Positions 1 through 40,046 are shown, numbered from the stretch's first letter. The stretch is DNA of 43,378 nt from Rhodocyclaceae bacterium (GCA_016880655.1 JAEHDA010000051.1:1-43378); one strand, 5' to 3'. Notes: a model not told the origin generated them from the sequence alone. Numbers and translations are program-made.

Positions 1-1859
1 GCCTGGCTCGCTTCGATCACCAGGCTGCCTTGAAGCACGCCATCGTCGAGCGTCAGGCGGCGGGTGGCCGAGAATTCGAGATGGTCGCCGAAGCCGCAGG
101 GCACGTCGCCGTTCTCCAGGATGTAGCGGCCCAGGTAGCCGTCGCAGCTGGGCATGGCGACGTTGAGCCGGATCTCGACGTGGCCGATCGCGGCCGCGCT
201 GCGATAGCGCACCGTCAAGCGGTTGCCGTCCATGCGGTAGGTCTTGGTCAGGTTGCCGGCGCACGCCACGGTCGAGAACGCCGCCTCGCCGGTTTCGCGA
301 TAGTCGTTGATCGGCCGGGGCGGGCCCTCGGTCGGGTACCAGCAGTCGTCGAACATGCCGCGCGCGCGCGTGTCCGGCTCGGCGTCCTGCAACTGGATGG
401 CGTGGCGGAAGGCGACGCGGTCATGCGCCGAATTGATGCCGCCGTGCTGCGCACCGTCTTCGGCCTGGCCATGCGCCGCATGCAGCTTGTCGTGATAGCC
501 CTCGTCATGGCGCCGCAGGGTGTCGCCGAAGTTGTGCGCCAGGGCGAGGCTGGACAGCTCGACCAGCGCCGCATCGCCGTCGGTGCGGACCACGGCGAGC
601 AGGTCGTCGCCGCGCAGGAACAGTTCGTCATGGCCGTCGCAGTCGAGATCGCGCCGCTCGAAAGTCAGCCGTGGCGACACGCCGAGGATTTCGGCTTCGA
701 GCGCCAGCAGGTTGTTCCAGATGGCCCGGCGCAGATGCGGCAGGTACAGGCCGCCGAACAGGCCGTGCCAGTAGGCGTCGTTGGCCTGGGCGCGGTGCAG
801 CATTTCCTGCATCTCGGGCGTGCGCTGCGCGAACGGCAGCGCGGCCAGTTTCGCCGAGACGTCGAGCATGCGCTTGTGCATCCAGTTCGATTCGGGGAAG
901 CGCATGAAGAAGTTGCGCCACATGCCGCCGCGCAGGAAGGGCTTGCGCTGCTCGAAGCGGCCGGCCTGCTTCTCCTGCTCGAGCAGGGCGTGGTAGGCGC
1001 GCGCGGCCGGGCCGGGCAGCGTCCATTCGTTCATCTCGATGTACGAGGTGGTCGGCAGGTAAACGATGCCGCGCGTCGGCTGACGGGAATGGAAATCGGC
1101 GTAGGTGTCGGTCTTGATCAGGGGCGAGGCCAGCACGCCTTCGATGAAGCGCGTCAGCCAGCCCTGCTCGTACACCCAGTGGAAGGTCTCGGGCCAGATG
1201 CCGAACTTTTCGATGTCGTCGAAGTAGACGGCGGCGCGATGACCCTCGCGCGCCTGGTGTTCGAGCCAGGTCACCGCCGCTTCGGCCGGCGAAAAAGGGA
1301 GGCGGTAGCGGGCCTGCTCCGAGATCGGGAAGAGGTCGAGCCTGCGGCCGTCCTCTTCGGTGGTGAAGAAGCTGTCGAGCTTGCCGGCAGGTTCGCCGGC
1401 GCACAGGAAATGGTAGTCGTCGACCGCCACGTACTCGATGCCGCAGTCGGCGAGCGAGGGTACCACTGCCGATTCCCAGACGCGCTCGGTGAGCCAGGCA
1501 CCCTTGGGCCGCTGGCCGAAGATGCGCTCGATCTTGTCGGAGAGCGTCCTGATCTGGCTGACGCGGTCGCGGTGCGGAATCGAGGCGAGCACCGGTTCGC
1601 AGTCACCCGAGCCAAACCACTCGACCTGGCCGCGCCGGGTCATCATCGCCAGCCGCTCCATGTCCTCGGGATAACGCTCGATCAGCCAGTCGAGCAGCCA
1701 GCCGGAGAAGTGCACGCTGAAGCGGAACTCGGGATAACGTTCCAGCGTTTGCAGGAACATGCGGTAGCAGCGGACGTGCGCTTCTTCCATCACGAAGTCG
1801 AAGTTGCCGACCGGCTGGTGGGCATGCACACCGAAGAGCAGGGAGATGGGCTGTGTCAT
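1..1859 (-). CDS. Glycoside hydrolase family 57 protein (alpha-amylase/4-alpha-glucanotransferase-like); 3' end lies beyond the window
   Basis: Absent from the ORF track because it has no in-window stop. Reading the minus strand from ATG 1859 gives an open frame to the window edge: MTQPISLLFGVHAHQPVGNFDFVMEEAHVRCYRMFLQTLERYPEFRFSVHFSGWLLDWL...RPKGAWLTERVWESAVVPSLADCGIEYVAVDDYHF. The HAHQP and WLTERVWE blocks match GH57 conserved regions. Tracked ORFs 30..1973(+) and 628..1404(-) are shadows of it. Confidence 0.8.
   Translation of the reverse strand, partial: MTQPISLLFGVHAHQPVGNFDFVMEEAHVRCYRMFLQTLERYPEFRFSVHFSGWLLDWLIERYPEDMERLAMMTRRGQVEWFGSGDCEPVLASIPHRDRVSQIRTLSDKIERIFGQRPKGAWLTERVWESAVVPSLADCGIEYVAVDDYHFLCAGEPAGKLDSFFTTEEDGRRLDLFPISEQARYRLPFSPAEAAVTWLEHQAREGHRAAVYFDDIEKFGIWPETFHWVYEQGWLTRFIEGVLASPLIKTDTYADFHSRQPTRGIVYLPTTSYIEMNEWTLPGPAARAYHALLEQEKQAGRFEQRKPFLRGGMWRNFFMRFPESNWMHKRMLDVSAKLAALPFAQRTPEMQEMLHRAQANDAYWHGLFGGLYLPHLRRAIWNNLLALEAEILGVSPRLTFERRDLDCDGHDELFLRGDDLLAVVRTDGDAALVELSSLALAHNFGDTLRRHDEGYHDKLHAAHGQAEDGAQHGGINSAHDRVAFRHAIQLQDAEPDTRARGMFDDCWYPTEGPPRPINDYRETGEAAFSTVACAGNLTKTYRMDGNRLTVRYRSAAAIGHVEIRLNVAMPSCDGYLGRYILENGDVPCGFGDHLEFSATRRLTLDDGVLQGSLVIEASQ
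660..683 (+). repeat. 24-nt word copy 1: GAAAGTCAGCCGTGGCGACACGCC (24/24)
   Basis: Inside the GH57 gene and antisense to it. The host reads GVSPRLTF. Confidence 0.9.
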
Positions 1860-1875
1860 TGGGGTTGGCGGGTTA

Positions 1876-3576
1876 TCAGCGGTGTTCCAGAGCCCGGCGC
1901 ATGGAGCCGCCTTCGGCGGTGTCGCTGCCCCGCGAGATCGGCATGTCCAGTTGCGACGGGGGCGGCAGCTTGAGCAGGTGGTAGAGGTTGGCGAGATTGC
2001 GGCGATAGAGCTGGTCGAAACTGGCGACCGCCTGGCTCGGGTTGTAGTCGCCGAACCACCAGAACCAGTCGGAGCTTTCGCAGATCGCCAGTTGGCGTTC
2101 CGCCGCCGCTGACTCTGCGGGCGCGAGGCGAGCGCTGCCGACCACCATGTCGTAGCTCTGCTTGGCGGCGCAGAGCAGGTCCCAGGCGCGATTTTTTTCG
2201 GTGTCGCCGATCCAGGTCGACATCGTTCCGTACACCCAGCTGCCCGCGGTCAGGCCGGTGAGCTGCGCCGCGTGCGGCCGGCTGGCGGCAGGCCGGGCGA
2301 GGATTTCCGCGTAGGTGGTGGTGCGGATGCGCGGATGCTTTTCGAGCAGGCCGTAGAGATCCTCGAAGAAGAAGAAGCCGTTGTACGGATAGTGCTCCCA
2401 GGCGTTTTCCCCGTCGAGGATGATGCTTACCACCGGTCGCTCGCCCGGCGGGCTGTCGGCGAGGATCGCCTCCAGTTGGCCGATCAGGTGCTGGGCGGCA
2501 TCGCGGCCGTGCCATTTGGCGTACTCGAAGCCGATCAGGTCGGAAAGCCGCTCGTCGCGGAAGAACAGCGTGATGCCGGGCGCCTCGGGCAAGGCCCAGG
2601 GCTGGTAGGCGGCACGGTGGCCATTGCCGCCGTGGCTGGCGAGACTGTTGCGCAGCACACCCTCGCCGCTGGCGAGCCAGGCGCAGCCGTGGGCGGCAAG
2701 CTGCTGCACGACCCCGGTCGAGATGGCGCCCTCGGCCGGCCACATGCCCGTGGGCGGCACGCCGAAGCGCCGTGCGTGCGATCTCCGCGCCGCTTCGATG
2801 TGCGCGACGAGGCGCTGGCGCCCGCCCGGGTAGGTGCTGGCCAGCGGCAGCGGCGCTTCGGGCAGGCTTTCGCGGGCGGAGTGAAAGTCGAGCAGCAGCG
2901 GTGCCAGCGGGTGGGTGTCGGGTGTGGCGGAAAGTTCGATCTGGCCGCGCTCCTGCAAGGTGCGGTAACGCGGCACCAGGCTGCGCATGATGTCGCCGAT
3001 CACCCGCAGCAGCGCCAGCCGTTCCGGGTGTCCGTAACCCTCGCCCTTGCTCATCAGTTCGGCGACGAGCGGCTGGCGCCGCCGCTCGGTCTCGCCGATC
3101 CACGCCAGGTGATACCAGGTGACCAGGTCCCCGAAATAGTCGCCGGAAAGGTAGGCGAGCGCCGCGTCGCCCTCGGGCGCCAGGCGTTCGTAGAGATCGT
3201 GCAGGCGCTTGTAGCGCGGGAAAGGCGCCAGCATGGTGTGATGGTTGCTGCGGAAGCAGGCCTCCAGCAGCAGTTCCCGGTCGGCCGTCGTGAGATGCGT
3301 CAGGTCCGGCGTCGCCAGCAGGCGCAACAGCGGTTCGCGGTATTCCCCCGAGTCGACCTGCCGGCAGTAGTCCTCGATCTGGTCGAGCAGCACGGGGACG
3401 AAATTGACCACCGCGTGAACGCCCGGATGCCGCTCCAGGTGGCCGGCCATGTCCGCATAGTCCTTGATGGCGTGGAGATACACCCACGGCAGCACATGCT
3501 CCCCGCTGGAGTGGTCGCGGTAATCCGGCTGGTGCATGTGCCAGAGGAAAACCAGGTCGAGCCGCTTGTCGGACAT
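1876..3576 (-). CDS. Glycoside hydrolase family 57 protein (second, tandem copy; amylase/branching-enzyme-like)
   Basis: ORF 1876..3720 trimmed to ATG 3576: MSDKRLDLVFLWHMHQPDYRDHSSGEHVLPWVYLHAIKDYADMAGHLE...PPTGMWPAEGAIS. The HMHQP and GMWPAEG blocks are GH57-like. The 48 codons upstream of this ATG are Arg/Pro-rich and run across the glgC stop. Confidence 0.8.
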   Translation of the reverse strand: MSDKRLDLVFLWHMHQPDYRDHSSGEHVLPWVYLHAIKDYADMAGHLERHPGVHAVVNFVPVLLDQIEDYCRQVDSGEYREPLLRLLATPDLTHLTTADRELLLEACFRSNHHTMLAPFPRYKRLHDLYERLAPEGDAALAYLSGDYFGDLVTWYHLAWIGETERRRQPLVAELMSKGEGYGHPERLALLRVIGDIMRSLVPRYRTLQERGQIELSATPDTHPLAPLLLDFHSARESLPEAPLPLASTYPGGRQRLVAHIEAARRSHARRFGVPPTGMWPAEGAISTGVVQQLAAHGCAWLASGEGVLRNSLASHGGNGHRAAYQPWALPEAPGITLFFRDERLSDLIGFEYAKWHGRDAAQHLIGQLEAILADSPPGERPVVSIILDGENAWEHYPYNGFFFFEDLYGLLEKHPRIRTTTYAEILARPAASRPHAAQLTGLTAGSWVYGTMSTWIGDTEKNRAWDLLCAAKQSYDMVVGSARLAPAESAAAERQLAICESSDWFWWFGDYNPSQAVASFDQLYRRNLANLYHLLKLPPPSQLDMPISRGSDTAEGGSMRRALEHR

Positions 3577-3587
3577 CTTTGGCGAAC

Positions 3588-4892
3588 CTAGCGAATCTGG
3601 TGGATGCGCTGACCGAGCATCTCGGGCGTCACCAGCGTGACGCCGCGGGCCGAGACGTGGAAGTGCTTGGCATCCGCGATCGGGTCGAAGCCGATCTTCA
3701 TCCCGGCGGGGATCTGGCAATGCTTGTCGACCACGACGCGGCGCAGCCGCGCGCCTTCGCCGATGTCGACTTTGGGCAGGATCACCGAATCCTCGACCAC
3801 CGCCTTGCTATGGACGTGAACGCTGGAAAACAGCAGCGAGCGGCGCACCGCGGCGCCACTGATGACGTTGCCGCCCGAGACCAGCGAGTCGATCGCCATG
3901 CCGCGGCGATCGTCGTCGTCGAAGACGAACTTCGCCGGCGGCAGTTGTTCCTGGTAGGTCCAGATCGGCCATTCCTGGTCGTACATGTTGAGCTCGGGCG
4001 TCACCTTGGTCAGCTCGATGTTGGCTTCCCAGTAGGCATCGACGGTGCCGACGTCGCGCCAGTAGGGCGTGCCGCTGTCGGTGACACCGACGCAGCTGTC
4101 GGCGAAGTTGTGGGCGAAGCAGCGGTAGCGGGAGACGCACTTCGGGATCACGTCCTTGCCGAAGTCGTGCGACGACTTGGGATCGTCGGCATCGCGGATC
4201 AGTTGTTCGAAGAGGAATTCGGCGTTGAAGACATAGATGCCCATGCTCGCCAGAGCCCGGTCCGGCCTGCCCGGCATGGCGGGAGGATCCTTCGGCTTTT
4301 CGAGGAAGCTGGTGACGTGTTGCTGGTCGTCGATGCCCATGACGCCGAAGGCGCTGGCTTCCTCGATGGGCACGTCCATGCAGGCGACCGTCATGTCGGC
4401 CTGCGACTGCGCGTGCTGCGCCAGCATGCGGCCGTAGTCCATCTTGTAGATGTGGTCGCCGGAAAGGATCAGCACATACTTCGGACTGCGCCGGCGGATC
4501 AGGTCGAGGTTCTGGAACACCGCATCGGCGGTGCCCTGGTACCAGTTCTCGGTGATCTGCTGCTGCGCGGGCAGGAGGTCGATGAATTCGTCGAAGCGGC
4601 CGTCGAGGAAGCTCCAGCCGCGCTGCAGGTGCATGATCAGGCTTTGCGCCTTGTACTGCGTGGCGACGCCGATGCGGCGGATGCCGGAATTGACGCAGTT
4701 GGAAAGCGTGAAATCGAGAATGCGGAACTTGCCGCCAAAAGGTACGGCCGGCTTCGACCGCCAGTCGGTGAGCTGCATCAGGCGGCTGCCGCGGCCGCCG
4801 GCCAGGACCATGGCGAAGGTACTGCGAGTCAGATGACTGACGAAACGGCCGTGGGTATCGTGCGGGTCGTTCGATGCCAGGTCTTGCTGCAT
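3588..4892 (-). CDS. glgC: Glucose-1-phosphate adenylyltransferase (ADP-glucose pyrophosphorylase)
   Basis: ORF 3588..4955 trimmed to ATG 4892, which is preceded by [56 protein letters not shown] is the classic GlgC N-terminal signature. Length of 434 aa fits. Confidence 0.92.
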
Positions 4893-4927
4893 GGGGTATC
4901 CTCCTCTCCAAACTCTAATTATGGCCA

Positions 4928-7091
<2,164 letters not shown>

Positions 7092-7102
<11 letters not shown>

Positions 7103-7460: not shown

Positions 7461-7537
7461 CGCTGTCTCCTGTGCAAATCTCGTGAAATAGTTATCTTTT
7501 TTTGTTGCAGGAGTATTGCTCCAATGCAATGCCAACG

Positions 7538-8470
7538 TCAAGCACGGGGATTTGCCAGGCAGGCGCCGCCGCGCAGTCCGAGCGACGGGTCGGTGACGAC
7601 GGCGACAGGCATCCGCCGTACCAGTTCGGCGTGTTCGGCCTTGGCGTTGAAGGCCGCCAGGAAGGGGCTCGCTGGCAGGACCGGCAGCAGCCTGGCGGCG
7701 ATGCCGCCGGCAAGATAGACGCCGCCGCGCGCCAGTGCGGCCATGGCCATGTCGCCGGCAAAGGCGCCATAGGCGGAAAGGAAGATGTCGAGCGAGTCGA
7801 GTGCCGGCTGGTCGGCGTCGATCAGGGCCCGGCGGGTGATTTCGGCCGGATCGAGGTCGTCGCCGGCCATGATGCGGTGAATTGCCGCAAGGCCGGGGCC
7901 GGAGATCACACGCTCGGCGGTAACGCGGCCGTGCTCGGCGCGCAGCGCGTGCAGGACGCGATCCTGATCCTCGTCCAGCGGCGCGAAGCCGACGTGACCG
8001 CCTTCGCCCGGCAGTACGCGCCAGCCGTGGCCGTCCGAAGCCAGAATCGCCATGCCGAGCCCGGTACCCGCGCCGATCACCAGCTTCGGCGCATTCACCA
8101 GCGGTTCGCCCTCCTGTAGGTAGACGATGGTTTCCGCCGGCGCGACGGTGACGCCCATCGCCGCCGCGGCGAAGTCGTTGGCCAGCGTGAGGCCGCCGAT
8201 GCGAAAGCGTGCTGCCAGCGCGTCGGCGTCGATGATCCAGGGCAAGTTGGTGAGTCTTGCGTGGCGGCCGTCGTCGCTGATCGGCCCGGCGACGGCGAGG
8301 CAACCTGACGTGATGTGTGCCTGGGTCTTGGCGAGAAAGGCCGCCAGCACCGCAGCGAAATCGGGAAAGTCAGCCGTGGCGACACGCCACTCCTCTAGCG
8401 GCTCGGTGGCCCCCGCTTCGGTCAGCGCCAGCCGGGCATTGGTGCCGCCGATGTCGCCGACGAGGATCAT
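7538..8470 (-). CDS. glk: Glucokinase
   Basis: MILVGDIGGTNARLAL (DxGGTNxR ATP-binding motif), LANDFAAAAMG. At 310 aa it is collinear with enterobacterial Glk as I recall it. Confidence 0.88.
   Translation of the reverse strand: MILVGDIGGTNARLALTEAGATEPLEEWRVATADFPDFAAVLAAFLAKTQAHITSGCLAVAGPISDDGRHARLTNLPWIIDADALAARFRIGGLTLANDFAAAAMGVTVAPAETIVYLQEGEPLVNAPKLVIGAGTGLGMAILASDGHGWRVLPGEGGHVGFAPLDEDQDRVLHALRAEHGRVTAERVISGPGLAAIHRIMAGDDLDPAEITRRALIDADQPALDSLDIFLSAYGAFAGDMAMAALARGGVYLAGGIAARLLPVLPASPFLAAFNAKAEHAELVRRMPVAVVTDPSLGLRGGACLANPRA
8365..8388 (+). repeat. 24-nt word copy 2: GAAAGTCAGCCGTGGCGACACGCC (24/24)
   Basis: Inside glk, antisense, in a different frame from copy 1. The host reads W-RVATADF-P. 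Confidence 0.9.
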
Positions 8471-8471
8471 G

Positions 8472-9278: not shown

Positions 9279-9300
9279 GGGAGGCGCATCCGGGCGTGTC

Positions 9301-12869: not shown

Positions 12870-13425
12870 CTGCCTGGTCCTCCAGTTCGCGCAACACGCG
12901 GAACAGTTCGCGGAAGGCGCGCGGCGGTTTGTTCTCGGCGCGCTCCTTGAGCGCATTGCGGCGCAACTGGCGCAGGTGCTGAAAGTCAGCCGTGGCGGTA
13001 CGCCGCGCGATTTCGTTGAGTACGCTCTCGTCCTCCAGCAGCCGCTCGCGCAGGCGCTCCAGCGCGTGCATGCGCGCCTTGGCGACTGCCGAGATGCCGT
13101 CGAACTCGTCGAGCGCGGCCTGGATCGGCGCGGGGTCGATGTTGCGCATCAGGCGGCCGATGTACTGCAACTGGCGCCGTCTCGCCTCGTGCTTGGTAAA
13201 GCGCTGGGCGTCCTTGACGGCGTCGCGCAGGTCGTCGGGCATGTCGACCTTTGCCAGCCGTTCGGCGCCAAGCCCTACCAGGCGCTCGCCCAGCGCCTGC
13301 AAGGCATCCATCTCGCGCTTGAGCTGCGACTTGCTTGGCGGGCCGGGCCGCTCGGGCTGATCGGACTGGGGGTCTTCGGGGTCGTATTCGGGGTGCACGG
13401 GTATCATTGTAACTTTCACAGCCAC
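12862..13425 (-). CDS. yjgA: Ribosome-associated protein YjgA (DUF615)
   Basis: SKSQLKREMDALQALGERLV..., RRRQLQYIGRLMR and ENKPPRAFRELFRVLRELED parallel E. coli YjgA as I recall it. The start is GTG 13425 or ATG 13407. The 3' end overlaps the mog start by 8 nt. Confidence 0.8.
   Translation of the reverse strand: MAVKVTMIPVHPEYDPEDPQSDQPERPGPPSKSQLKREMDALQALGERLVGLGAERLAKVDMPDDLRDAVKDAQRFTKHEARRRQLQYIGRLMRNIDPAPIQAALDEFDGISAVAKARMHALERLRERLLEDESVLNEIARRTATADFQHLRQLRRNALKERAENKPPRAFRELFRVLRELEDQADD
12981..13004 (+). repeat. 24-nt word copy 3: GAAAGTCAGCCGTGGCGGTACGCC (22/24)
   Basis: Inside yjgA, antisense. The host reads RRTATADF. Confidence 0.9.
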
Positions 13426-17358: not shown

Positions 17359-17392
17359 AAAAAAAAGCCCCGCTTTGGCGGGGCTTTTTCTT
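17359..17392. terminator. Bidirectional rho-independent terminator between convergent dctP and dctM
   Basis: An A8 run, then GCCCCGC(17367-73)-tttg-GCGGGGC(17378-84), then TTTTT. It would work on both strands. Confidence 0.85.
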
Positions 17393-17406
17393 TCCAGATC
17401 GCACCC

Positions 17407-23346: not shown

Positions 23347-23370
23347 GAAAGTCAGCCGCGGCGGTACGCC
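23347..23370 (+). repeat. 24-nt word copy 5: GAAAGTCAGCCGCGGCGGTACGCC (21/24)
   Basis: Spans the ribD/moeB convergent gap and the moeB 3' end. Its antisense supplies AYRRG-stop. Confidence 0.9.
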
Positions 23371-26050: not shown

Positions 26051-27286
26051 TCAGCGCAGACGGACCCAGCGGATCGGGTCGAATGCCTGTCCCTGATGTC
26101 TAAGCTCAAAGTATAAACCCGATTCCGGGTTGCCGCCCGTGCTGCCGACCGTGGCGACGACCTCGCCGGGCGCGACGCGCTGGCCGGTTTCCTTGAGCAG
26201 CGACTGGTTGTTGCCATAGACGGAGAGGAAGTCATCACCGTGGTCCACCACCATCAGGTTGCCGAATCCGCGCAACCAGTCGGCGAAGACTACTTCGCCT
26301 GCGGCGACCGCCTTTACCTCGGCGCCCTCCGTGGCGCGGATGAACAATCCCTTCCAGGTGGCGCCGCCTTCCGGACGCGCCTTGCCGAAGCGGCTGGCAA
26401 TCTCGCCGCGTACCGGCAGGCTCAACTTGCCGCGCAAGGCCGCGAAAGCGCCGCCGGCTTGCGCCGGGTCGGGCGTCCGTTCATTGCGAACCGAGGTGGA
26501 CGGCTTCCTGCCCGGTGCCGGTTTGGCCGGACGCTTGGCGGCCTGGGCCAGCTTCGCGAGCAGATCGGTCAGCCGTTTCTCGTCGCGCTGTAGCGCGCCT
26601 ATCTCCTTCCGCTGCGCCTTGATCTTGTCGGCGGTGCGGACCAGCAGCGCGTGACGCTGCTTCTGCTGGTCGAGCAGCCTGGTGCGCGCCTGCTGCTGCT
26701 TCTCCTCGATGGCGGCCAGTTCCGCGTTTTTTTCCCGTGCCGATTCGGCCAGGCGTTTCTTTTCCCTGGCCTTGCCGCGCAGGTCGGCGATCAGTTCGGC
26801 TTTCGCCAGCGACAGGCGCTTCAGGTAGTGATAGTCAAGCGCCGCTTGATTGGGGTCGCGACCGCTCATCAGCAGGCTGAAGGCATCCATCTCGGTGCGG
26901 CTGCCGAGCGTGTAGTGGCGGTAGAGCAGGCGCGACAGGTGTTCCTGTTGCACTGCGGTCTGCTCGGCGAGTCGCCGCGACTGACTTTCGAGGCCGCGGA
27001 TATCGCCCTGGACGGCAATGCGCTTATCGGCAAGATGGTGAATGCCGCGGTTGGCGTCCGATATCGCCGACTCGGTTTCGCGCAACTGGTCGGCAACGTC
27101 GGCGCGCGATTCCTCGCTCTTGGCCAGGTCGCGACGCAGGGTCTCGATGCGTTCCCGCACTTCCCCCTGCTGTTCCTTCAGTTCCGCCTTGCGCGTCGCC
27201 GGAGAAGCGGCGAGCGTCGTCCCGCAGATGACCGCGAAAAGGACGCCGACAACGGCGCCGCTACTTCGCCTTGCCTTGGTTGGCAA
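26051..27286 (-). CDS. Murein hydrolase activator / M23 peptidase (EnvC-like, coiled-coil N-terminus)
   Basis: A long coiled coil followed by a C-terminal LytM domain ([29 protein letters not shown]...[24 protein letters not shown]). The start is set at TTG 27286, giving the signal peptide [29 protein letters not shown]. No ATG or GTG start exists downstream of the gpmA stop, so this start is uncertain. Confidence 0.8.
26966..26989 (-). repeat. 24-nt word copy 6: GAAAGTCAGTCGCGGCGACTCGCC (21/24)
   Basis: Inside the M23 peptidase coiled coil, sense. The host reads ESQSRRLA. Confidence 0.85.
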
Positions 27287-29655: not shown

Positions 29656-29659
29656 CACC

Positions 29660-31073: not shown

Positions 31074-31076
31074 GTT

Positions 31077-31541: not shown

Positions 31542-31592
31542 GGCCGCGCAATTCGATTAGGATGGCCGCCAGTCTATTGGGGAAACGAGTCC

Positions 31593-31976: not shown

Positions 31977-32094
31977 GCCGCAATGCGGGTATTTCTTGCG
32001 ATTCGGCTTAATTGGTACTATTTTTAGCCGTTAAATCATTGTGCTGCATAAAACATTTCACGTTTTTCCTTAGATAGGAATCGCCGGATATCCG

Positions 32095-33807
32095 ATGGCT
32101 CGGCCACCACAACGCATACGCCTGGGTGACTTGCTGATACAGGAAGGGCTGCTCACCGATGAGCAGCTCAGGCTCGCGCTCGAAGAACAGAAACGCAGCG
32201 GGCGCAAGCTCGGCCGCATTTTCGTCGATAGCGGCTACGTCACCGAAGACGGCATCGCCAAGGCCTTGGCGCGCCAATTGCGCGCCGAGTTCGTCGACCT
32301 GCGCAGTTTCCAGCCCAGGCCCGAACTCATCAAGCTCTTGCCCGAGCCGCAGGCGCGCCGTTTCCGCGCCATCGTGCTCGACGATCAGGCCGGCCTGCTG
32401 CGCGTCGGATTTGCCGATCCCACCGACATCACCGCCTACGACGAGGTCGCCCGGATCGTCCGGCGCGACATCGAACTGGTGGTGGTGCTCGAAAGCCAGT
32501 TGGTGCCATTGCTGGACCGGGTCTATCGCCGCACCGAGGAAATCACCGGCCTGGCGAAAGAACTGACCCAGGAGATGGGCGACATTCCGTTCGAGTTCGG
32601 CTCGGTGCTGGGGCTTGCGCCGGGCGCCGAGGACGCGCCGGTCGTCAAGCTGCTCAACACCGTGTTCGAGGAGGCGCTGAAGATGCGTGCCTCGGACATC
32701 CACGTCGAGCCGCAGGAAAAGTCGCTGATCATCCGCTTCCGCATCGACGGCGTGCTGCATGTGCAGACCGAAGCGGACGCCAAGATCGCCACCGCGCTGG
32801 TGCTGCGCCTGAAGCTGATGTCCGGCCTCGATATCTCGGAAAAGCGCCTGCCGCAGGACGGCCGCTTCGCACTGCAACTGCGCGGCGCGCCGGTCGACGT
32901 GCGCATTTCGAGCATGCCGACCCAGTTCGGCGAGTCGGTCGTGATGCGCCTGCTGGTGCAGAACGCCGCGCTGATGGATGTCGGCCGTCTGAACATGCCG
33001 CCGCGCGTGCTGGAACGCTTCCGCGCCGCCATCCATCGTCCGTCGGGCATCGTCCTGGTCACCGGCCCGACCGGTTCCGGCAAGACGACCACGCTCTACG
33101 CCGCGCTCAACGAACTCAACACGCCCGAGAAGAAGATCATCACGGTCGAGGACCCGGTCGAGTACCGCCTCGCCGGCCTCAACCAGGTGCAGGTGCACGA
33201 GAAGATCGACCTCTCGTTCGCGCGCGTGCTGCGCAGCACCCTGCGCCAGGACCCGGACATCATCCTGGTCGGCGAAATGCGCGACCAGGACACCGCCGAA
33301 ATCGGCATGCGCGCGGCCATGACCGGCCACATGGTGCTTTCCACCCTGCACACCAACGACGCGCTGTCCACGCCGATCCGCCTGCTCGACATGGGCGTGC
33401 CGCGCTACATGGTGGCGCTCTCGATCCAGATGGTGCTGGCGCAGCGGCTGATCCGCGTCATCTGCGAATCCTGCGCCGAGCCGCACACGCTGGCGCCGCA
33501 CGAGCGCGAGTGGTTGCGCTACGAACTCGGCGACCGCGTCGACAGCGTCCAGTACCGCCACGGCCGCGGCTGCGCGCATTGCGCCAATACCGGCTATCAG
33601 GGCCGGCAGGCCGTGTACGAATTCCTGGAAATGACCAACAGCCTCGTCGAGGCTGTTAACCACGGCGATCCGAACGAATTCATCCGCATCGGCCGCGAGC
33701 AGATGGCCGGTGAGACGCTGCGCCGTGACGCGGTGCGTCTGGTGACGGCGGGGCGCACCACGCCCGAAGAGGCGATGCGCATCTCCAGCCAGGTGGACGA
33801 GGACTAG
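32095..33807 (+). CDS. mshE: Type IV pilus (MSHA-type) assembly ATPase with N-terminal MshEN c-di-GMP-binding domain
   Basis: GspE/PilB family: Walker A GPTGSGKTTT, VEDPVEY, ILVGEMRD, a tetracysteine CESC...CAHC. The N-terminus RLGDLLIQEGLLTDEQLRLALEEQ matches the MshEN 24-residue motif, followed by a second half-motif KLGRIFVDSGYVTEDGIAKALARQ. Confidence 0.88.
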   Translation: MARPPQRIRLGDLLIQEGLLTDEQLRLALEEQKRSGRKLGRIFVDSGYVTEDGIAKALARQLRAEFVDLRSFQPRPELIKLLPEPQARRFRAIVLDDQAGLLRVGFADPTDITAYDEVARIVRRDIELVVVLESQLVPLLDRVYRRTEEITGLAKELTQEMGDIPFEFGSVLGLAPGAEDAPVVKLLNTVFEEALKMRASDIHVEPQEKSLIIRFRIDGVLHVQTEADAKIATALVLRLKLMSGLDISEKRLPQDGRFALQLRGAPVDVRISSMPTQFGESVVMRLLVQNAALMDVGRLNMPPRVLERFRAAIHRPSGIVLVTGPTGSGKTTTLYAALNELNTPEKKIITVEDPVEYRLAGLNQVQVHEKIDLSFARVLRSTLRQDPDIILVGEMRDQDTAEIGMRAAMTGHMVLSTLHTNDALSTPIRLLDMGVPRYMVALSIQMVLAQRLIRVICESCAEPHTLAPHEREWLRYELGDRVDSVQYRHGRGCAHCANTGYQGRQAVYEFLEMTNSLVEAVNHGDPNEFIRIGREQMAGETLRRDAVRLVTAGRTTPEEAMRISSQVDED

Positions 33808-33811
33808 CGGA

Positions 33812-35050
33812 GTGCCCGCGTTCGCCTATCGCGGCCGCAACTCTGCCGGCGAAGCCGTCGAAGGCATGCTCGACGGCAACAACGCAGCGGCGGTGGCCGA
33901 CTTGCTGTTCGGCACCGGCATCACGCCGCTGGAAATCAAGCCCGCGCCGGCCGGCGCCACGGAAAAGAAAGTTGGTGGCGGCGCCATCAATCTGGAGTTC
34001 TTCGCCGAGAAGGTCGCCCACGTCGACATCCTGATGTTCACCCGCCAGCTCTATACGCTGCTGAAGGCGGGCGTGCCGATCATGCGTGCGCTGGCGGGCT
34101 TGCAGGAGTCGAGCCAGAACAAGGCGATGAAGAATCTCCTCGGCGACGTGCGCCAGAGCCTCGACAGCGGCCGCGAGTTGTCGGTGTCGCTGGCCCGGCA
34201 TCCCAAGGAGTTCTCGAACTTCTATCTCGCCATGGTGCGCGTCGGCGAAATGACCGGCCGGCTGGAGGAGATCTTCCTGCGCCTGTTCGACCACATGGAG
34301 TTCGAGCGCTTCATGCGCGAACAGGTCAAGTCGGCGCTGCGCTACCCCAGCTTCGTCATCCTCGCCATGGCCGTGGCCCTGTTCGTGGTGAACGTCTGGG
34401 TGATCCCGACCTTCGCCAAGGTCTTCCAGGGCTTCAACGCCGAACTGCCGATGGTGACGCGCATGCTGATCGGCTTCTCCGAATTCACCGTCGCCTGGTG
34501 GCACTTCATCGTGGTCGGGGCAATCGCGGCCGCGTTCGCCTTCCGCGCCTGGATCGGCACGCCGCGCGGCCGCTACCTGTGGGACGAGGCCAAGATGCGC
34601 ATCCCGGTCGCCGGCAAGATCATCCGCAAGGCGACGCTGGCCCGCTTCGCGCGCAGTTATGCGCTGGCGCTGCGTTCCGGGGTACCCGTGATCCAGGCGC
34701 TGACCACGGTCGCGCAGACCGTGGACAACGCGTTCATCTCCGAGAAGGTCGAGCAGATGCGCGACGGCGTCGAGCGCGGCGAATCCATCCTGCGCGCCGC
34801 CATCGGCACCGGTGCCTTCACGCCCGTGGTGCTACAGATGATCGCCGTCGGCGAGGAGTCCGGCACCATCGACGAGATGATGGAAGAAATCGCCGGCATG
34901 TACCAGAGCGAAGTCGAGTACGAACTCAAGACGCTCTCGCAACAGATCGAGCCGATCCTGATCGTCATGCTCGGCGGCCTGGTGCTGGTTCTGGCGCTCG
35001 GCATCTTCCTGCCCATGTGGGACCTTGGCAAGGTGGCGATGAAGAAATGA
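33812..35050 (+). CDS. mshG: Type IV pilus platform protein (GspF/PilC family, MshG-like)
   Basis: 412 aa, GTG start after GAGGA. Two GspF repeats (FTRQLYTLLKAGVPIMRAL... and FARSYALALRSGVPVIQAL...) and three TM segments. Confidence 0.85.
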   Translation: MPAFAYRGRNSAGEAVEGMLDGNNAAAVADLLFGTGITPLEIKPAPAGATEKKVGGGAINLEFFAEKVAHVDILMFTRQLYTLLKAGVPIMRALAGLQESSQNKAMKNLLGDVRQSLDSGRELSVSLARHPKEFSNFYLAMVRVGEMTGRLEEIFLRLFDHMEFERFMREQVKSALRYPSFVILAMAVALFVVNVWVIPTFAKVFQGFNAELPMVTRMLIGFSEFTVAWWHFIVVGAIAAAFAFRAWIGTPRGRYLWDEAKMRIPVAGKIIRKATLARFARSYALALRSGVPVIQALTTVAQTVDNAFISEKVEQMRDGVERGESILRAAIGTGAFTPVVLQMIAVGEESGTIDEMMEEIAGMYQSEVEYELKTLSQQIEPILIVMLGGLVLVLALGIFLPMWDLGKVAMKK

Positions 35051-35574
35051 ACATGCGCTCGCGCCAATCCGGCTTCACGCTCATGGAACTGGTGGTCGTC
35101 ATTGCCATCATCGCCATCCTCGCCGCCGTCGCCCTGCCGCGCCTGATCGAAACCCAGCGTGATGCCCGCGTCGCCAAAGCCATGGCCATCTACGGTTCGC
35201 TGCGCTCGGCCTCGTCGCTGGCGCGTGCCCGCTGCGAACTCGACCTGGCCGGCACTCCTGTTCCAGGGAAAGTCAGTTGTCGCGACACGCCGCCGATGGT
35301 GGAAATGGATGGACATCGGGTGCGCATCGTCAATCATTATCCGGCCGCAGCGGCGGACGGCATCGACGTGGCGGCGGACATCAACCTGGCGGGCGACGGA
35401 CTGGTCGCCGGCAACGGCAGCGACACCAACAGTCTCGGCATCGGCGTGCCCAGCCGTACCTTCAAAGTCAGCGGTGGCAGCACGCCGAATTGCAGCGCGA
35501 CCTACCTGGAGGCGGGTCTCAAGGGGGGCAGCGTCGTTGGCGCGGAAGTGCGCGTCGCCACCGACGGCTGCTGA
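35047..35574 (+). CDS. Type IV pilin-like protein (MshB-like minor pilin, 175 aa)
   Basis: ATG 35047 overlaps the mshG stop (ATGA). Prepilin signal [31 protein letters not shown] with Glu5. Confidence 0.8.
35268..35291 (+). repeat. 24-nt word copy 7: GAAAGTCAGTTGTCGCGACACGCC (21/24)
   Basis: Inside the 175-aa pilin gene, sense. The host reads KVSCRDTP. Confidence 0.85.
35463..35486 (+). repeat. 24-nt word copy 8: CAAAGTCAGCGGTGGCAGCACGCC (20/24)
   Basis: In the same pilin gene, 195 nt downstream of copy 7, sense. The host reads KVSGGSTP. Confidence 0.8.
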
Positions 35575-35621
35575 TTCGTTCTATTATTCCTAAAGTCATA
35601 TTCTCACCACGGAGGCACAGC

Positions 35622-36038
35622 ATGAAAAAGCAGATACAGCAAGGCTTCACCCTGATCGAACTGGTCGTGGTCATCGTCATCCTCGGCATCCTCGCCGCCG
35701 TTGCGCTGCCGCGCTTCATCAATCTCAGTGCCGATGCGGCCAACGCCGCCGCACAGGGCGTTGCGGGCTCAATCGCTTCCGGAACCTCGATTAACTTTGC
35801 AGCCCGCTCTGCCAACAATGCCGCTGCGACTGTGCTCAATCAGGCCAACGTCTGTACGTCGGCGATTCTGGGTACGTTCGTTACCGGCGTAACGCTCGTT
35901 GCCGTGGCGCCGACAAGCAACAGCCAGTTCCAGATTGCCGGCACCGGCGACTGTAGTGGTACGAACAACACCGTTTTCTGCACCGTCACGGCCCAGAACG
36001 GCACGGCACAGAACGCAACGGTTGTTTGCGCCCGGTAG
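35622..36038 (+). CDS. mshA: Type IV major pilin candidate (MshA-like, 138 aa)
   Basis: GGAGG lies 6 nt upstream. [32 protein letters not shown]. It is short, has a C-terminal Cys pair, and the variable part has lower GC3. An AT-rich 47-nt gap lies upstream. Confidence 0.7.
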
Positions 36039-36099
36039 TTGGCGATCTCGCTGGGCTAACGCGGCGCAGTGGCGCCGCGGGCGCCGCAGTGTCGACCCG

Positions 36100-39000
36100 A
36101 TGAGCGGGTGGCGGGGAGCATGGCTCGCGGCCGCGCCGGCGTTTGTGGCCGGCGCGGGCAAACGGCTTGGATGCGTAGCCGTCCTGCTGTGCGGGCTCTG
36201 GCTGTCTGCCGTTCCGGCGCACGCCCAAACCTACCAGAGCGCCTCGACGCCGTTTAGCTGGGTCGACCCCGCGACCCACACCCGGATCGGCTACAACACG
36301 CCGACCTACAAGTTCAATGGCGGTGGTGGCTGCGGTTCGACGCCGCCCGTGCTGGACGACACCATCAGCGACCTCATTCCGATCGGTTTTACCTTCGTTT
36401 ACGGCACTATCGGCTACACGCAACTGCGCATCCAGACCAACGGTCGGCTACAGTTCAACAACGCCGAGTGCGGCTACGGTACCGCGAGTGTCGGACCGCC
36501 GCAGACCTATCCCTACGGCTATCCGGTCGCCACCATGAACAACACCATGAAGGTGTTCGGTGTCGATCTGGATCCGACCAACAGGGCCGATTCGGCGACC
36601 TACCCGACGACCTGCAATGGCCATGCGAATTGCTACGTCAAATGGGCGTCGATCGGTACGGCACCCAACCGTCAGTTCGTCGTGACCTGGTTCCACGTCC
36701 CCGAATGGGTAACGTCAACCAACACCAGCGGCTCCTTCGACCTGCAGGTCATCCTCAACGAAGACGGTTCCTTCGTCTACCAGTACGGCACCATTACCCA
36801 CGGCGGCACCGGCACCGCACAGGTGGGCTGGCAACTGACGACTACCGATTACGCGGTGTTGACCTTCGGCGCCTCGACCGAGCCCCCGCCGAACACGTCC
36901 ATCGTCTTCTTCAAGCCGTCGGCCGTGGCCAATTACCGCTTCGACGAGGGCGGCTGGCTTCCGGGAGCTGCCGGCCAGGTGCTCGACACCACCGCGAATG
37001 CCCGGCATGGCATGTCGGTGGGCACCGCCCAGACCACCGCCGCCGGCTATGTCTGCCGCGGCGCGAATATTCCCGCCAATACCACCGGCCCTGCTGTCGA
37101 TGCGGTCCAGACCGGGGTCAACGTCGGTACGGCGAGCCTCAATCTCCTGGGCACGGGGACGATTGCATTCTGGTACAAGTCCAACAGTGCATGGAGCGGC
37201 GCGGCGGCGCAATTGATCGATGCGACCAGCGTCGGCGGCCAGTGGTTCTACCTGGCCAAGAAAGCCGGCGGCACTTTGTACTTCGGGGTGACTGACAGCA
37301 CCGGTACCTTCCGTTCGGTGGAAACGCCGGTACAGACGTTCGCCGCCAATACCTGGGTGCATGTCGCGGTCAGCTGGAACTTCAACGGCCTCGCCGCGGC
37401 GAACTCGGACCAGTTGAGAATCTTTGTCAATGCGGGTACGCCGACGACGTCGTCATTCACCAGCAACGGCACGGTCACGACCCAGGCCGGCTTGTTGTAT
37501 GTCGGCGACAATCCCGTCGGCATCGCGGATACCAACGGCAGCGTCAATTCCGCCAACGGCGTGATCGACGAGGTCACGGTCTACAATTCGGCGTTGAGCA
37601 CTGCGCAAGTGGGTGCCCACAAGGTCGGCACCCACACCTGTCCAACATCCAATATCCACCACCTGGAAATTCAGAGCAGCGGCAGCGGCCTGACTTGCGC
37701 TGCGAGCCCCATCACCATCCGCGCCTGCACGAATGCCCCATGCTCGACGCTCTATACCGGCGGCATCAGCGGCACACTGACCGCGACGGGGACGCCGGTC
37801 GTCATATCCGACACCAGTTCGGGTGGTTTTCCCGGCAGCGGTTTCGCGATCGGCCTGGGATCGAGCTCGACGGTGAAGTACATCCAGGTTGCGTCGGCAG
37901 GAAGCGTGGTGCTCGGCATCGCCGGGGTCAACCAGGCCGTGCCCAATGCCACCACCTGCAATTTCGGCTCGCCCGCCTGCACCTTCACGGCCAATACGGC
38001 GGGATTCATATATGCCAATGCGAGCACGGGCACCAGCTACACGATTCCGGCCCAGGTTTCCGGCACGGCGACGGCGGCAAACGCCATCTACCTTCGGGCA
38101 GTACAGGCACTGACCACCAATCCGGCGGTGTGCACGCCGGCGATCATCAGCCAGTCCAACGTCCCGGTAACGCTCGGTTACACCTGCGTCGATCCGGCGA
38201 CCTGCCAGGCCGGCAACCTGATGACGATCAATTCGACCGCCGTGCCCGCCGGCGGCGGCAGCGTCAATCTGAATTTCGATGCGAATGGCTCGGCGCCGAT
38301 CACCATTCGCTACGACGATGTCGGGCGAATCACCGTGGATGCAAGCAAGACAGTGACGCCTTTCGGCGGCGCGACTCCCGTCACCCTCACCGGCAGCAGC
38401 AACGGCTTCGTCGTTGCGCCGGCGAGCTTCGCTGTGACTCCCGCCGGCCCATATGTTGCCGGCAGCCCGTTCAACGTCACGGTCGCCGCGAAGAACGCCC
38501 TGGGCGGTACGACGCAAAACTTCGGCAAGGAAAGCACTACCGAGAACGTGACGCTCGGCCGCACGCTGACTGCACCGGCCGGTGGCAACAACCCCGCGCT
38601 CGCAGGCACGACGACCTTGGCCGACGCCGCATTCCAGACCGGCAATGGCGTGGCGTCGACCAGTGCCGTCCAATGGGGCGAGGTCGGCGACATCGCCGTT
38701 ACTGCGACGCTGGCGAGCGGCAGCTATCTCGGCTCCGGCTTGACGGCTACCGGTTCCGGGGCGGCAGGCCCGTTCAAGCCGGCCTATTTCGACACCGCGG
38801 CAATCGAGGGTTGCAGTGCCTTCACCTATTCCGGCCAGCCTTTTGGCGTGACCGTCACGGCGAAAAACGCCGCGGGCACGACGACCCAGAACTACAAGGG
38901 CGCCTACGCCCGGGCGACGACCCTGGCCGATGCCAACAGCGCGACCAACAACAGCACGACGCTGGGCGTTCTTGCGAACACCGGCATTACCGCGGCGACT

Positions 39001-39570
39001 TTCAGCAACGGCGTAGCGACCACAGCCACGCTCGTCTATGCCTTCAATGCCAAGATTACCGCGCCGCTGGAAGCGCCCGGTTCGGCGCCGCTCAAGTTGC
39101 GCGCCACGGATACGGATGCGGTGACATCCAGTGGCCACACCGAGGGCACGACAGCCATCCGCAGCGGCCGGCTGCGGCTCTCGAATGTCTACGGCTCGGT
39201 GGCGCCGCTCGACATGCCGGTCGAGCCGCAGTACTGGACCGGCAATTCCTGGACCAGGAACGGTAGCGACGGCTGCACGACGCTGGTCCCGGGCACCATT
39301 TCGCTGTCGCCGGCCGGTTGGGGCGTGGCCGTCGTGCCGGGCTTCATCAGGCTGACGCCGACCGGCGCCGGCAGTGTGTCCGTCTGTGCCGACCTTGCGG
39401 CCGACCCGGTCGGTGGCGTCGTGTGTTCGGCCGCCAGCGCCGCGTTGCCGTGGCTGCAATCGAAATGGCCGCCGGGCGCCAACCACGACAACGATCCCTC
39501 CGCCACGGCCACCTTCGGCGTGTTCAGTCCCGAGGGCCGGCGCGGCGTGTACAACCGGGAGATGTACTGA
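36100..39570 (+). CDS. mshQ: MshQ-like large secreted pilus-associated protein with LamG (concanavalin A-like lectin) domain
   Basis: Tracked ORF 35899..39570 trimmed to ATG 36100 (GTG 36145 is an alternative). Signal peptide ...LGCVAVLLCGLWLSAVPAHA/QT. LamG-like block at about 37150-37615 (GTIAFWYKS...NTWVHVAVSW...LRIFVNAG...VIDEVTVYNSALS). C-terminal Ig-like repeats. Confidence 0.75.
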   Translation: MSGWRGAWLAAAPAFVAGAGKRLGCVAVLLCGLWLSAVPAHAQTYQSASTPFSWVDPATHTRIGYNTPTYKFNGGGGCGSTPPVLDDTISDLIPIGFTFVYGTIGYTQLRIQTNGRLQFNNAECGYGTASVGPPQTYPYGYPVATMNNTMKVFGVDLDPTNRADSATYPTTCNGHANCYVKWASIGTAPNRQFVVTWFHVPEWVTSTNTSGSFDLQVILNEDGSFVYQYGTITHGGTGTAQVGWQLTTTDYAVLTFGASTEPPPNTSIVFFKPSAVANYRFDEGGWLPGAAGQVLDTTANARHGMSVGTAQTTAAGYVCRGANIPANTTGPAVDAVQTGVNVGTASLNLLGTGTIAFWYKSNSAWSGAAAQLIDATSVGGQWFYLAKKAGGTLYFGVTDSTGTFRSVETPVQTFAANTWVHVAVSWNFNGLAAANSDQLRIFVNAGTPTTSSFTSNGTVTTQAGLLYVGDNPVGIADTNGSVNSANGVIDEVTVYNSALSTAQVGAHKVGTHTCPTSNIHHLEIQSSGSGLTCAASPITIRACTNAPCSTLYTGGISGTLTATGTPVVISDTSSGGFPGSGFAIGLGSSSTVKYIQVASAGSVVLGIAGVNQAVPNATTCNFGSPACTFTANTAGFIYANASTGTSYTIPAQVSGTATAANAIYLRAVQALTTNPAVCTPAIISQSNVPVTLGYTCVDPATCQAGNLMTINSTAVPAGGGSVNLNFDANGSAPITIRYDDVGRITVDASKTVTPFGGATPVTLTGSSNGFVVAPASFAVTPAGPYVAGSPFNVTVAAKNALGGTTQNFGKESTTENVTLGRTLTAPAGGNNPALAGTTTLADAAFQTGNGVASTSAVQWGEVGDIAVTATLASGSYLGSGLTATGSGAAGPFKPAYFDTAAIEGCSAFTYSGQPFGVTVTAKNAAGTTTQNYKGAYARATTLADANSATNNSTTLGVLANTGITAATFSNGVATTATLVYAFNAKITAPLEAPGSAPLKLRATDTDAVTSSGHTEGTTAIRSGRLRLSNVYGSVAPLDMPVEPQYWTGNSWTRNGSDGCTTLVPGTISLSPAGWGVAVVPGFIRLTPTGAGSVSVCADLAADPVGGVVCSAASAALPWLQSKWPPGANHDNDPSATATFGVFSPEGRRGVYNREMY

Positions 39571-40046
39571 TGGCTGGCCGCCGCGCCAGCCAAGGCTTCA
39601 CGCTGATCGAACTCGTCACCATCATGATCCTGATCGGCATCCTCGCGGTGGTCGCCTTGCCCAATCTCGATCAGGCACAGGGCTTCGGCGCCGCCAGCTT
39701 CAATGACCGTGTCGCGGCCTCGCTGCGCTTCGCGCAAAAGTCAGCCGTGGCGAAACGCCGCATGGTGTGCGCGACGGTCGCTCCGGGCAGCCTGACACTG
39801 ACGGTTGCCACCGCGTTTGGCGATGCGGCCTGTCCCGGTGTGCTGGCTGGTCCGGACGGCGCGAACCCGGCGGCGGTGGCGCCGGCCAACGTCACGCTGA
39901 CCGCCGTGCCGGGCGGTCCGCTCTTCTTCCAGCCCTCGGGCGCGGTGACCAGCGATGCCGCCGGGGCTTCCCCCGCCACCTTCACGCTGACCGCGACCGG
40001 GCAGACGCCGATAACGGTCAATGGAGCGACCGGCTATGTCGATTAG
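39570..40046 (+). CDS. Pilin-like protein, GspH/FimT family (MshC-like)
   Basis: The ATG shares one base with the mshQ stop (TGATG). [31 protein letters not shown]. Confidence 0.75.
   Translation: MAGRRASQGFTLIELVTIMILIGILAVVALPNLDQAQGFGAASFNDRVAASLRFAQKSAVAKRRMVCATVAPGSLTLTVATAFGDAACPGVLAGPDGANPAAVAPANVTLTAVPGGPLFFQPSGAVTSDAAGASPATFTLTATGQTPITVNGATGYVD
39736..39759 (+). repeat. 24-nt word copy 9: AAAAGTCAGCCGTGGCGAAACGCC (22/24)
   Basis: Inside the GspH/FimT-like pilin gene, sense, in a third frame. The host reads (Q)KSAVAKR. Confidence 0.9.

Follow-up and report, generated by a model that had tools for sequence, protein, structure and literature searches.

A recurrent 24-nucleotide word with lineage-specific dialects in Rhodocyclaceae genomes, a candidate DNA-uptake or self-recognition sequence

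A 43,378-nucleotide stretch from a Rhodocyclaceae bacterium (GCA_016880655.1, JAEHDA010000051.1, positions 1–43378; hereafter the window) carries repeated copies of an asymmetric 24-nt word (GAAAGTCAGCCGTGGCGACACGCC) inside unrelated genes. By analogy with known systems we consider it somewhat probable that this word belongs, as the local dialect, to a lineage-specific family of words of approximately 24 nt, which would represent a third family of DNA-uptake or self-recognition sequences, kept in place by transfer-biased drive. DNA uptake enhancing sequences (DUES) were, as of October 2025, known only in the Neisseriaceae (eight dialects plus three new ones) and the Pasteurellaceae (two dialects); in both families they form dialects, occur within and between genes, avoid stop-containing reading frames, accumulate in permissive regions and are maintained by uptake-biased recombination (bioRxiv 10.1101/2025.10.24.684340). 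DUES are the one well-described precedent for the full set of properties reported below, and for this reason we rank a DUES-like word first among the explanations considered.

The window contains eight matches to GAAAGTCAGCCGTGGCGACACGCC with no more than three mismatches, compared to none in 100 dinucleotide-preserving shuffles, and a ninth copy with four mismatches (35463, plus strand). Scored against the degenerate consensus NAAAGTCAGCCGTGGCGRYACGCC, there are ten copies with up to four mismatches in the 43.4 kb, compared to a mean of 0.005 in 200 triplet-preserving shuffles. The octamer AAAGTCAG occurs nine times in the window (0.44 expected), always within a copy of the word, and approximately 93% of its occurrences across 750 kb belong to the word. 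This octamer, GC at positions 15–16 and CGCC at positions 21–24 are invariant in all nine copies. There is no similarity between copies in the 50 bases on either side and nothing in common beyond approximately 25 nt, thus the repeat unit is the word alone. The original prediction, which had been made from the window alone, gave nine copies with three invariant blocks and an octamer confined to them; our coordinates, strands and mismatch counts agree with it exactly, and the comparison with shuffled sequence bears out the excess that it had estimated.

Two copies are exact, one lying antisense in the gene for a GH57 4-alpha-glucanotransferase (660–683, plus strand, read as GVSPRLTF) and the other antisense in glucokinase (8365–8388, plus strand, RVATADF). 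Also antisense are the copies in the DarP/YjgA gene (12981–13004, plus strand, GAAAGTCAGCCGTGGCGGTACGCC, TATADF) and across the stop codon of a ThiF/MoeB-family gene (23347–23370, plus strand, GAAAGTCAGCCGCGGCGGTACGCC, AYRRG-stop). The word is read in the sense direction in the last codons of a DctM-type TRAP permease (17414–17437, minus strand, GAAAGTCAGCCCGGGCGACACGCC, KVSPGDTP), in an M23 peptidase gene (26966–26989, minus strand, GAAAGTCAGTCGCGGCGACTCGCC, ESQSRRLA), twice in the same frame of an MshA-like pilin gene at approximately 35050–35574 (35268–35291, plus strand, GAAAGTCAGTTGTCGCGACACGCC, KVSCRDTP; 35463–35486, plus strand, CAAAGTCAGCGGTGGCAGCACGCC, KVSGGSTP) and in a GspH/FimT-like minor pilin gene at approximately 39579–40046 (39736–39759, plus strand, AAAAGTCAGCCGTGGCGAAACGCC, KSAVAKR). 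The tenth, degenerate copy (2094–2117, minus strand, CAGAGTCAGCGGCGGCGGAACGCC, four mismatches to the degenerate consensus) falls within the overlap of two GH57 open frames (3–2249 and 1876–3807, both on the minus strand). Pfam assigns the hosts to GH57, glucokinase, DarP/YjgA, DctM, ThiF/MoeB, M23 peptidase and two N_methyl pilins, one of them with GspH, as had been proposed without database searches, and the translations quoted at that time (KVSCRDTP, KVSGGSTP, KSAVAKR, AYRRG-stop, GVSPRLTF, ATADF and ESQSRRLA) are all correct. The remainder of the window is ordinary core genome, including glycogen genes, thyA, pmbA, a TRAP transporter, glyA, nrdR, ctpA, gpmA, secB, gpsA and an MSHA-type pilus cluster.

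We examined 194 copies from the window and related genomes, approximately 120 of which lie in crudely called open reading frames (ORFs), 62 in sense and 58 in antisense orientation. Five of the six possible frames are used, the word being read as GVSPRLTF (38 copies), KVSRGDTP (39), RVATADF (20), KSAVATR (13) or ESQPWRHA (10); the unused sixth frame contains TGA. About one third of the 194 copies lie outside the crude ORF calls, often between a few and some tens of bases from gene ends. The use of five frames in both orientations identifies the word as a signal at the level of DNA and not a protein motif, in line with the initial interpretation. In every frame the word imposes two or three codons ending in A or T, in a genome in which G+C content at third codon positions (GC3) is approximately 85%.

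Several alignments support an origin of the word in situ, by substitution, and not by insertion. Gap-free alignments are obtained between the glucokinase (Glk) site and E. coli-type glucokinase structures (query "wrvatadfpdf" against "TYSGLDYPSL") and between the DarP site and PSPTO_4464 (2p0t), and nucleotide alignments with distant orthologues show no 24-nt gap at the sites at 660, 8365 or 12981. Insertion of a miniature element is ruled out by these comparisons with PDB homologues and distant orthologues, and the absence of an eight-codon insertion in Glk and YjgA, which had been proposed as favouring in-situ origin, is confirmed.

The Glk site illustrates how such substitutions may proceed. 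Here RRYANADF or RRLASADF has become RVATADF, including a synonymous change of GCC to GCT against the 85% GC3, and the site follows the local variant of the word, with RVATADF in the window's clade, which carries the form that we call dialect A, RRLASADF in lineages carrying dialect B (one mismatch from the B consensus) and RRYANADF elsewhere. The rare codon TTT is usually retained at this site across lineages, and a related word or near-match is present there in nearly all betaproteobacterial Glk orthologues. This may be an ancient word site which has co-evolved with the dialect, or it may be a near-match constrained by the protein and repeatedly tuned to the local word; under either history the changes are point substitutions in the direction of the local word.

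The consensus of dialect A is RAAAGTCAGCCGTGGCGRYACGCC, and the local consensus is RAAAGTCAGCCGTGGCGRYACGCCR. Position 1 is weak (A>G>C), positions 2–9 (AAAGTCAG) are nearly invariant (at least 95% conserved), and positions 10–24 are 80–95% conserved except for the degenerate positions 18–19; positions 10–17 read CCGTGGCG, followed by R at 18, Y at 19, A at 20, CGCC at 21–24, G or A at 25 and a position 26 at which T is rare. The architecture is therefore that of a nearly invariant core with a weaker extension, and logos built from non-seed copies agree with those anchored on the octamer alone. In these logos the centres of the sub-blocks AAAGTC and TGGCG are approximately 10.5 nt apart, which places them on the same side of the helix. 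We found no compensatory changes across copies in the potential GGCG...CGCC mini-stem, no significant folding compared to shuffles on either strand for words A and B, and no Rfam match in the window, which together rule out a hairpin or RNA reading. Close pairs of copies (within 300 nt) are direct in 13 cases and inverted in five, and some are small tandem duplications, thus they are not terminator pairs.

Beyond the window, GTDB representative genomes match the exact 23-mer in at least 97 stretches, which belong to 13 assemblies among the matches listed, nearly all labelled Rhodocyclaceae, Rhodocyclales or Betaproteobacteria, and at species level the count of Rhodocyclaceae genomes with this 23-mer is at least 12; the carriers are uncultured organisms represented by metagenome-assembled genomes (MAGs). 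Assemblies with more than one locus contain 0.07–0.17 additional non-seed copies per kb, measured in 8-kb blocks. As an unbiased sample, 80 metagenome loci (numbered below with the prefix L, as are other related loci) were retrieved via the glucokinase protein without reference to the word. Among these Glk-centred loci dialect A is restricted to close relatives (Glk identity at least 74%), and six such loci (L098–L103, approximately 81–84% nucleotide identity to the window) contain 16 word sites in 55.6 kb, including orthologues of the copies at 660, 8365 and 12981, or 0.18 per kb with the Glk site excluded. The density in the window and the unbiased loci is 0.1–0.3 per kb, which extrapolates to approximately 700–900 copies per 4-Mb genome, and the similar density in relatives, together with the exact 23-mer matches, argues against a local duplication within the window. 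Several loci of 12–21 kb contain no word at all (L114, L118, L155, L158, L174, L276 and L279), and the distribution is therefore patchy.

Loci dense in words carry ordinary housekeeping genes, and we saw no linked system in them. One stretch of JAHJPX010000017.1 (160–176 kb; L050 and L093) has nine copies in 16 kb, eight of the nine in one orientation, several of which flank small genes (FeMo-cofactor-like, ankyrin); this is denser than the mean of approximately one per 5 kb. A 587-bp contig labelled Sideroxydans sp. (L034, JBNKBO010000162.1) contains an exact dialect-A word and is 84% identical to the window's glk region; mis-binning of a Rhodocyclaceae fragment is the probable reason for its place in a Sideroxydans MAG, and the word could serve as a marker of such binning errors.

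De novo k-mer counts in more distant Glk loci revealed further dialects, all variants fitting the scaffold AAAGTC-N6-(T)GGCG-NN-ACG(G/C)C. Dialect A (RAAAGTCAGCCGTGGCGRYACGCC) is that of the window (10 copies in 43.4 kb compared to approximately 0.005 expected) and of L098, L100 and L103. Dialect B (AAAGTCGGCGCTGGCG(G/A)(G/A)ACGGC, consensus AAAGTCGGCGCTGGCGRRACGGC) is found in 17 of 30 long loci (L175, L177, L148, L115 and others), and L123 has eight copies of it in 20.9 kb compared to 0.01 expected. Dialect C (RAAAGTCTGGCGCC...GGACGGCC, also AAAGTCTGGCGCC..GGACGGC) is present in L107, whose Glk is 72% identical to that of the window, with five copies in 12.1 kb compared to 0.01 expected. A D-like form (AAAGTCAGCGGYGCCGGNACGGC) occurs in some viral contigs and once in 21 kb of Ca. 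Nitricoxidivorans perseverans; three other named or MAG loci contained no word. Each locus carries one dialect, and triplet-preserving shuffles of 530 kb yielded no match for A, B or D and 0.1 for the looser C pattern. An apparent combination of B and D in one genome was rejected as an artefact of overlapping patterns. Turnover of dialects among close relatives is rapid, with A, C and no word all encountered at Glk identities of 70–85%. L115 also carries an AAACTC form (AAACTCGGCGCTGGCGRGACGGCAC; three copies in 21 kb, at 10080, 18952 and 19968), which alters the otherwise invariant core, so that the core block too can shift between lineages.

At orthologous sites the word columns are 88–100% identical, compared to 81–84% overall and 67–86% in the flanking 60 nt on each side. 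The copy at 660 is exact in L071, retained in L098 and decayed in L104, while the DarP copy at 12981 is preserved in L098, L100 and L103, has decayed in L104 and is missing from distant orthologues. L104 (Ga0187786_10000077) shares synteny with the window across 15 kb (80% identity), and its copies at all three shared sites (660, 8365 and 12981) are degraded (GATAGTCAGTGGTGGCGCGACGCC, GGAAGTCAGTCGTAGCGTAGCGCC and GAAAGTCAGCCGTGACATGACGCT), the word columns being 78% identical compared to 80% overall, that is, at background level; there is no intact or new copy in its 18 kb. L104 resembles a natural loss-of-drive lineage, and would be an ideal comparison genome for finding a gene whose product reads the word. 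Turnover is also evident elsewhere: L071 has a good copy (6344, minus strand) orthologous to the degenerate copy at 2094 in the window, and L098 carries copies in sequence that cannot be aligned with the window. A degenerate variant, AAAGTCAGTCCCCACGCCACGCC, lies at one orthologous position in four relatives (L098 at 4267, L100 at 7641, L103 at 3584 and L102 at 527), in sequence unaligned to the window, and may be an old copy drifting jointly in all four.

The seven-to-two split between strands in the window had been put forward as possible evidence for a replication-polarised word, but this is not general. Using GC skew as a proxy for polarity, 181 copies divide into 51 on the plus and 52 on the minus strand in loci with positive skew, and 50 and 28 in loci with negative skew, so that 44% of copies have the word on the G-rich strand; along long contigs, words of either orientation are intermingled inside individual 8-kb blocks.

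Dialect A has no match in IMG/VR, although this zero is uninformative because the commoner dialect B does occur there: a first impression that the word is absent from viruses was abandoned, dialect B being present in at least 97 IMG/VR viral contigs, some clearly prophage-like, at approximately 0.06 extra copies per kb. One prophage-like contig with primase, ParB-methyltransferase and minor tail genes has five words in 12.6 kb. BLAST searches with the dialect B word against PLSDB plasmids and GenBank phages returned only chance partial matches. Uptake signal sequences (USS) likewise accumulate in temperate Pasteurellaceae prophages (PMC6776037), and because of this parallel the viral occurrences do not discriminate between the explanations weighed below. 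In one viral contig (L193, IMGVR_UViG_3300009945_000063; 629–2238 and 3489–4058) a 316-nt unit with a dialect-B word occurs in 4.7 copies (91% identity), adjacent to an ORF whose N-terminus resembles that of an integron integrase; the unit ends are attC-like (...TAAC / GTTAGGC), and the repeat seems from these features to be a tandemly duplicated integron cassette containing the word. In two other IMG/VR contigs (L196 at 3841–3920, and L227), a dialect-B word and one of D-like form (AAAGTCAGCGGCGCCGGCACGGC) lie at a distance of 57 nt on a single viral contig, and such a "bilingual" element may have met hosts with different dialects.

Under the DUES-like explanation, a component of DNA import by natural transformation, probably a surface or pilus-associated receptor, would prefer double-stranded DNA bearing the word, and better-matching fragments would be imported and recombined more often. 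Point mutations toward the word would then spread in the population, even inside genes and against codon preference, wherever the encoded peptide tolerates them. Mutation would wear copies down and the drive would restore them; a shift in receptor specificity would cause the whole set of sites to drift to a new dialect, and loss of the system would leave the copies to decay. It is from the resemblance to DUES that we infer DNA uptake to be the biased process and a receptor to exist. The words are extremely over-represented, lineage-wide and conserved above their flanks irrespective of frame and strand, as described above, and the word family appears to be undescribed within the searchable literature: full-text searches, with 10- and 13-mers from dialects A and B in either orientation as well as for uptake sequences in connection with Rhodocyclaceae, Accumulibacter or Dechloromonas, gave no relevant result.

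A number of observations weigh against a role in uptake. With 23–25 informative positions the word is two to three times the length of the neisserial DNA uptake sequence (DUS; 10–12 nt) or the USS core (9 nt), and its density of approximately 0.2 per kb is several-fold below that of the uptake words of Neisseria and Haemophilus, roughly one per kb. The predominance of direct over inverted close pairs (13 compared to five), with no terminator hairpins, is unlike DUS, and words are not excluded from prophage-like elements. The pilus cluster present in the window is MSHA-like, and its pilins match N_methyl and GspH only, with no ComP_DUS domain. Finally, a DNA-binding function other than uptake could leave a similar static pattern.

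One version of such a function is an array of binding sites, with copies under selection, for a chromosomal DNA-binding protein that has no part in import, for example a nucleoid or chromosome-organisation factor, or the self-marker of a nuclease or defence system. The hundreds of asymmetric sites per genome, conserved above their flanks at orthologous positions, and the location of AAAGTC and TGGCG on one side of the helix are as such a protein would require, and prophage-like contigs carry the host word at host-like density, as a self-marker predicts. However, we know of no nucleoid or architectural protein that reads a 24-nt asymmetric word at approximately one site per 5 kb, a patchy distribution among relatives speaks against a core chromosomal role, and the rapid turnover of dialects and clean decay in a syntenic sister fit a dispensable, drive-maintained word better; we regard this explanation as unlikely. 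A somewhat more doubtful candidate is another transfer- or repair-biased drive, such as a pac-like packaging signal of a gene-transfer agent or phage-like particle, or short-patch repair or gene conversion. In-situ origin, independence of frame, dialects and decay upon loss would be expected equally from any process that favours the word, words do occur in prophage-like contigs, and a length of approximately 24 nt is nearer to packaging or recombination sites than to known DUES. Yet to our knowledge no packaging or repair system writes a word genome-wide, and gene-transfer agents are not known to package DNA by sequence; neither the window nor the loci show a candidate gene linked to the words, and replication-coupled conversion should leave a strand bias, of which we saw none.

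Strand statistics lead us to reject a reading of the KOPS (FtsK-orienting polar sequence) or Chi type, whether as an architecture word polarised with replication or as a hotspot of recombination, and we consider it very improbable. It drew on the presence of seven of the nine window copies on one strand, on a density of approximately one per 5 kb that is close to that of Chi in E. coli (roughly one per 4.5 kb), and on the occurrence within dialect B of GCTGGCGG, one mismatch from E. coli Chi (GCTGGTGG). Against this stand the 44% of 181 copies on the G-rich strand, the mixed orientations within 8-kb blocks, and the fact that the best-conserved part of the word is AAAGTC and not the Chi-like part. 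Chi and KOPS are moreover words of 5–8 nt conserved over wide taxa, whereas this word is approximately 24 nt long and changes between close relatives; such fast turnover, with decay in a sister lineage, argues both against Chi or KOPS and against functional selection acting site by site. Least probable of all, to the point that we give it hardly any weight, is a miniature mobile element or its footprint (a repetitive extragenic palindrome (REP), a miniature inverted-repeat transposable element, an Ssn-related motif or attC), a shared peptide motif, or chance. In its favour are the shortness, repetition and dispersal of the copies, the small tandem duplications among some close pairs, and an IMG/VR contig with the word inside tandemly duplicated integron-type cassettes; but there is no similarity beyond approximately 25 nt, no insertion or deletion relative to homologues and no hairpin or covariation, most copies lie inside genes with five frames in use, and shuffles expect approximately none. 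Ssn-related motifs, for comparison, are hairpin-forming inverted repeats of 20–50 nt that flank genes (PMC11893778).

The pilus genes of the window occupy 32095–41322 and form an MSHA-type cluster, comprising an MshE-like ATPase with an MshEN domain, an MshG-like platform protein, an MshA-like pilin, a 1223-aa DUF6701/MshQ-like protein with a laminin-G domain, a GspH/FimT-like pilin and two further pilins. One of these genes, for a 175-aa pilin, carries the word twice in one frame, at a spacing of 195 nt, and in the dialect-B loci L123 and L177, which have homologous msh genes, there is also a word at the end of mshQ. A scan for pilin signatures across 1.35 Mb of chromosomal (non-viral) loci found one pilin only, and the FimT-like pilin of the window has no obvious C-terminal arginine motif like that of FimT. 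Directly downstream of the DctM stop codon, at 17360–17413, a G+C-rich hairpin is followed by a T-run on the gene's strand (AAAAAGCCCCGCCAAAGCGGGGCTTT); the word copy at 17414–17437 abuts this intrinsic-terminator-like site and is not part of it.

DUES are the main model for genetic exchange restricted to an organism's own kind, and for molecular drive that rewrites coding sequence. If the DUES-like explanation is true, the words described here would be a third, independent and much longer family, would display several dialects as well as gains and one visible loss in bacteria abundant in wastewater and groundwater, and would offer natural replicates for testing the drive model. It would be possible to hunt for the receptor by matching changes of dialect to changes in candidate proteins, and to trace recombination and binning errors in metagenomes with the word as a tag. 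If the process is not uptake, then something else keeps a 24-nt asymmetric word at hundreds of sites, which would be unprecedented.

Among known systems, the DUS of Neisseriaceae (GCCGTCTGAA and its dialects, with receptor ComP) belong to the same class, the Betaproteobacteria, and are likewise lineage-specific, over-represented words; a genome with DUS has hundreds to thousands of them, spread over both strands. DUS and the present word both form dialects, with related species having one variant in common and distant ones differing (here A, B, C, AAACTC and D-like), and both lie in genes and in spacers, avoid stop-containing frames and lack replication polarity. They differ in length (23–25 nt compared to 10–12 nt) and in density, which is approximately five times lower here; DUS form inverted terminator pairs, whereas close pairs of this word are mostly direct and show no significant fold, and no ComP-type pilin is among those in the window. 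The reverse complement of dialect B (GCCGTCTCGCC) has GCCGTCT in common with the neisserial 10-mer DUS, for which we roughly estimate a chance probability of 0.01–0.05; the essential CTG core of DUS is not retained in this word because its G is replaced, by C in the dialect B reverse complement. We treat this partial sequence match as a lead toward common ancestry and not as evidence for it. A broader proposal, which we offer as speculative and on balance unlikely, is that self-DNA recognition extends beyond the two known families and is widespread in environmental Betaproteobacteria (Rhodocyclaceae and relatives) in the form of a bipartite word of approximately 24 nt with fast-evolving dialects. 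Such a word might be kin to neisserial DUS through the common GCCGTCT, DUS being a shortened descendant of an older, longer signal, or it might, given its length, be read by a new kind of receptor.

The USS of Pasteurellaceae have a 9-nt core within an extended consensus of approximately 30 bp, and the nearly invariant core AAAGTCAG with its weaker extension over approximately two helical turns is of similar design; USS too lie inside genes in several frames, where point mutations have produced them in situ. The accumulation of USS in temperate prophages (PMC6776037) has a counterpart in the dialect B words of prophage-like contigs. The sequences themselves are unrelated, the core here being AAAGTCAG and not the AAGTGCGGT or ACAAGCGGT of USS, and the USS extension consists of A/T tracts, while here it is G+C-rich and specific; the host family also differs. 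Chi (RecBCD/AddAB) and KOPS (FtsK) are over-represented, intragenic and frame-independent at a similar density, but are 5–8 nt long, strongly co-oriented with replication and shared by broad taxa, in contrast to a word of approximately 24 nt that is unpolarised and fast-evolving. REP and bacterial interspersed mosaic elements, Ssn-related motifs (NTS) and chromosomal attC sites resemble it as abundant, short, lineage-specific genomic repeats; they are palindromic hairpins between or beside genes and tied to the gene for a dedicated enzyme, whereas this word has no significant fold and no stem covariation, is mostly coding and is not associated with insertions or deletions. The likeness to DUS and USS suggested in the original prediction can thus be extended to dialects, to conservation above the flanks and to decay in a sister lineage, while the sequence definitions of DUS and USS both fail to include this word. 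Judged by its sequence and distribution, it is DUES-like in behaviour and a member of neither the DUS nor the USS family.

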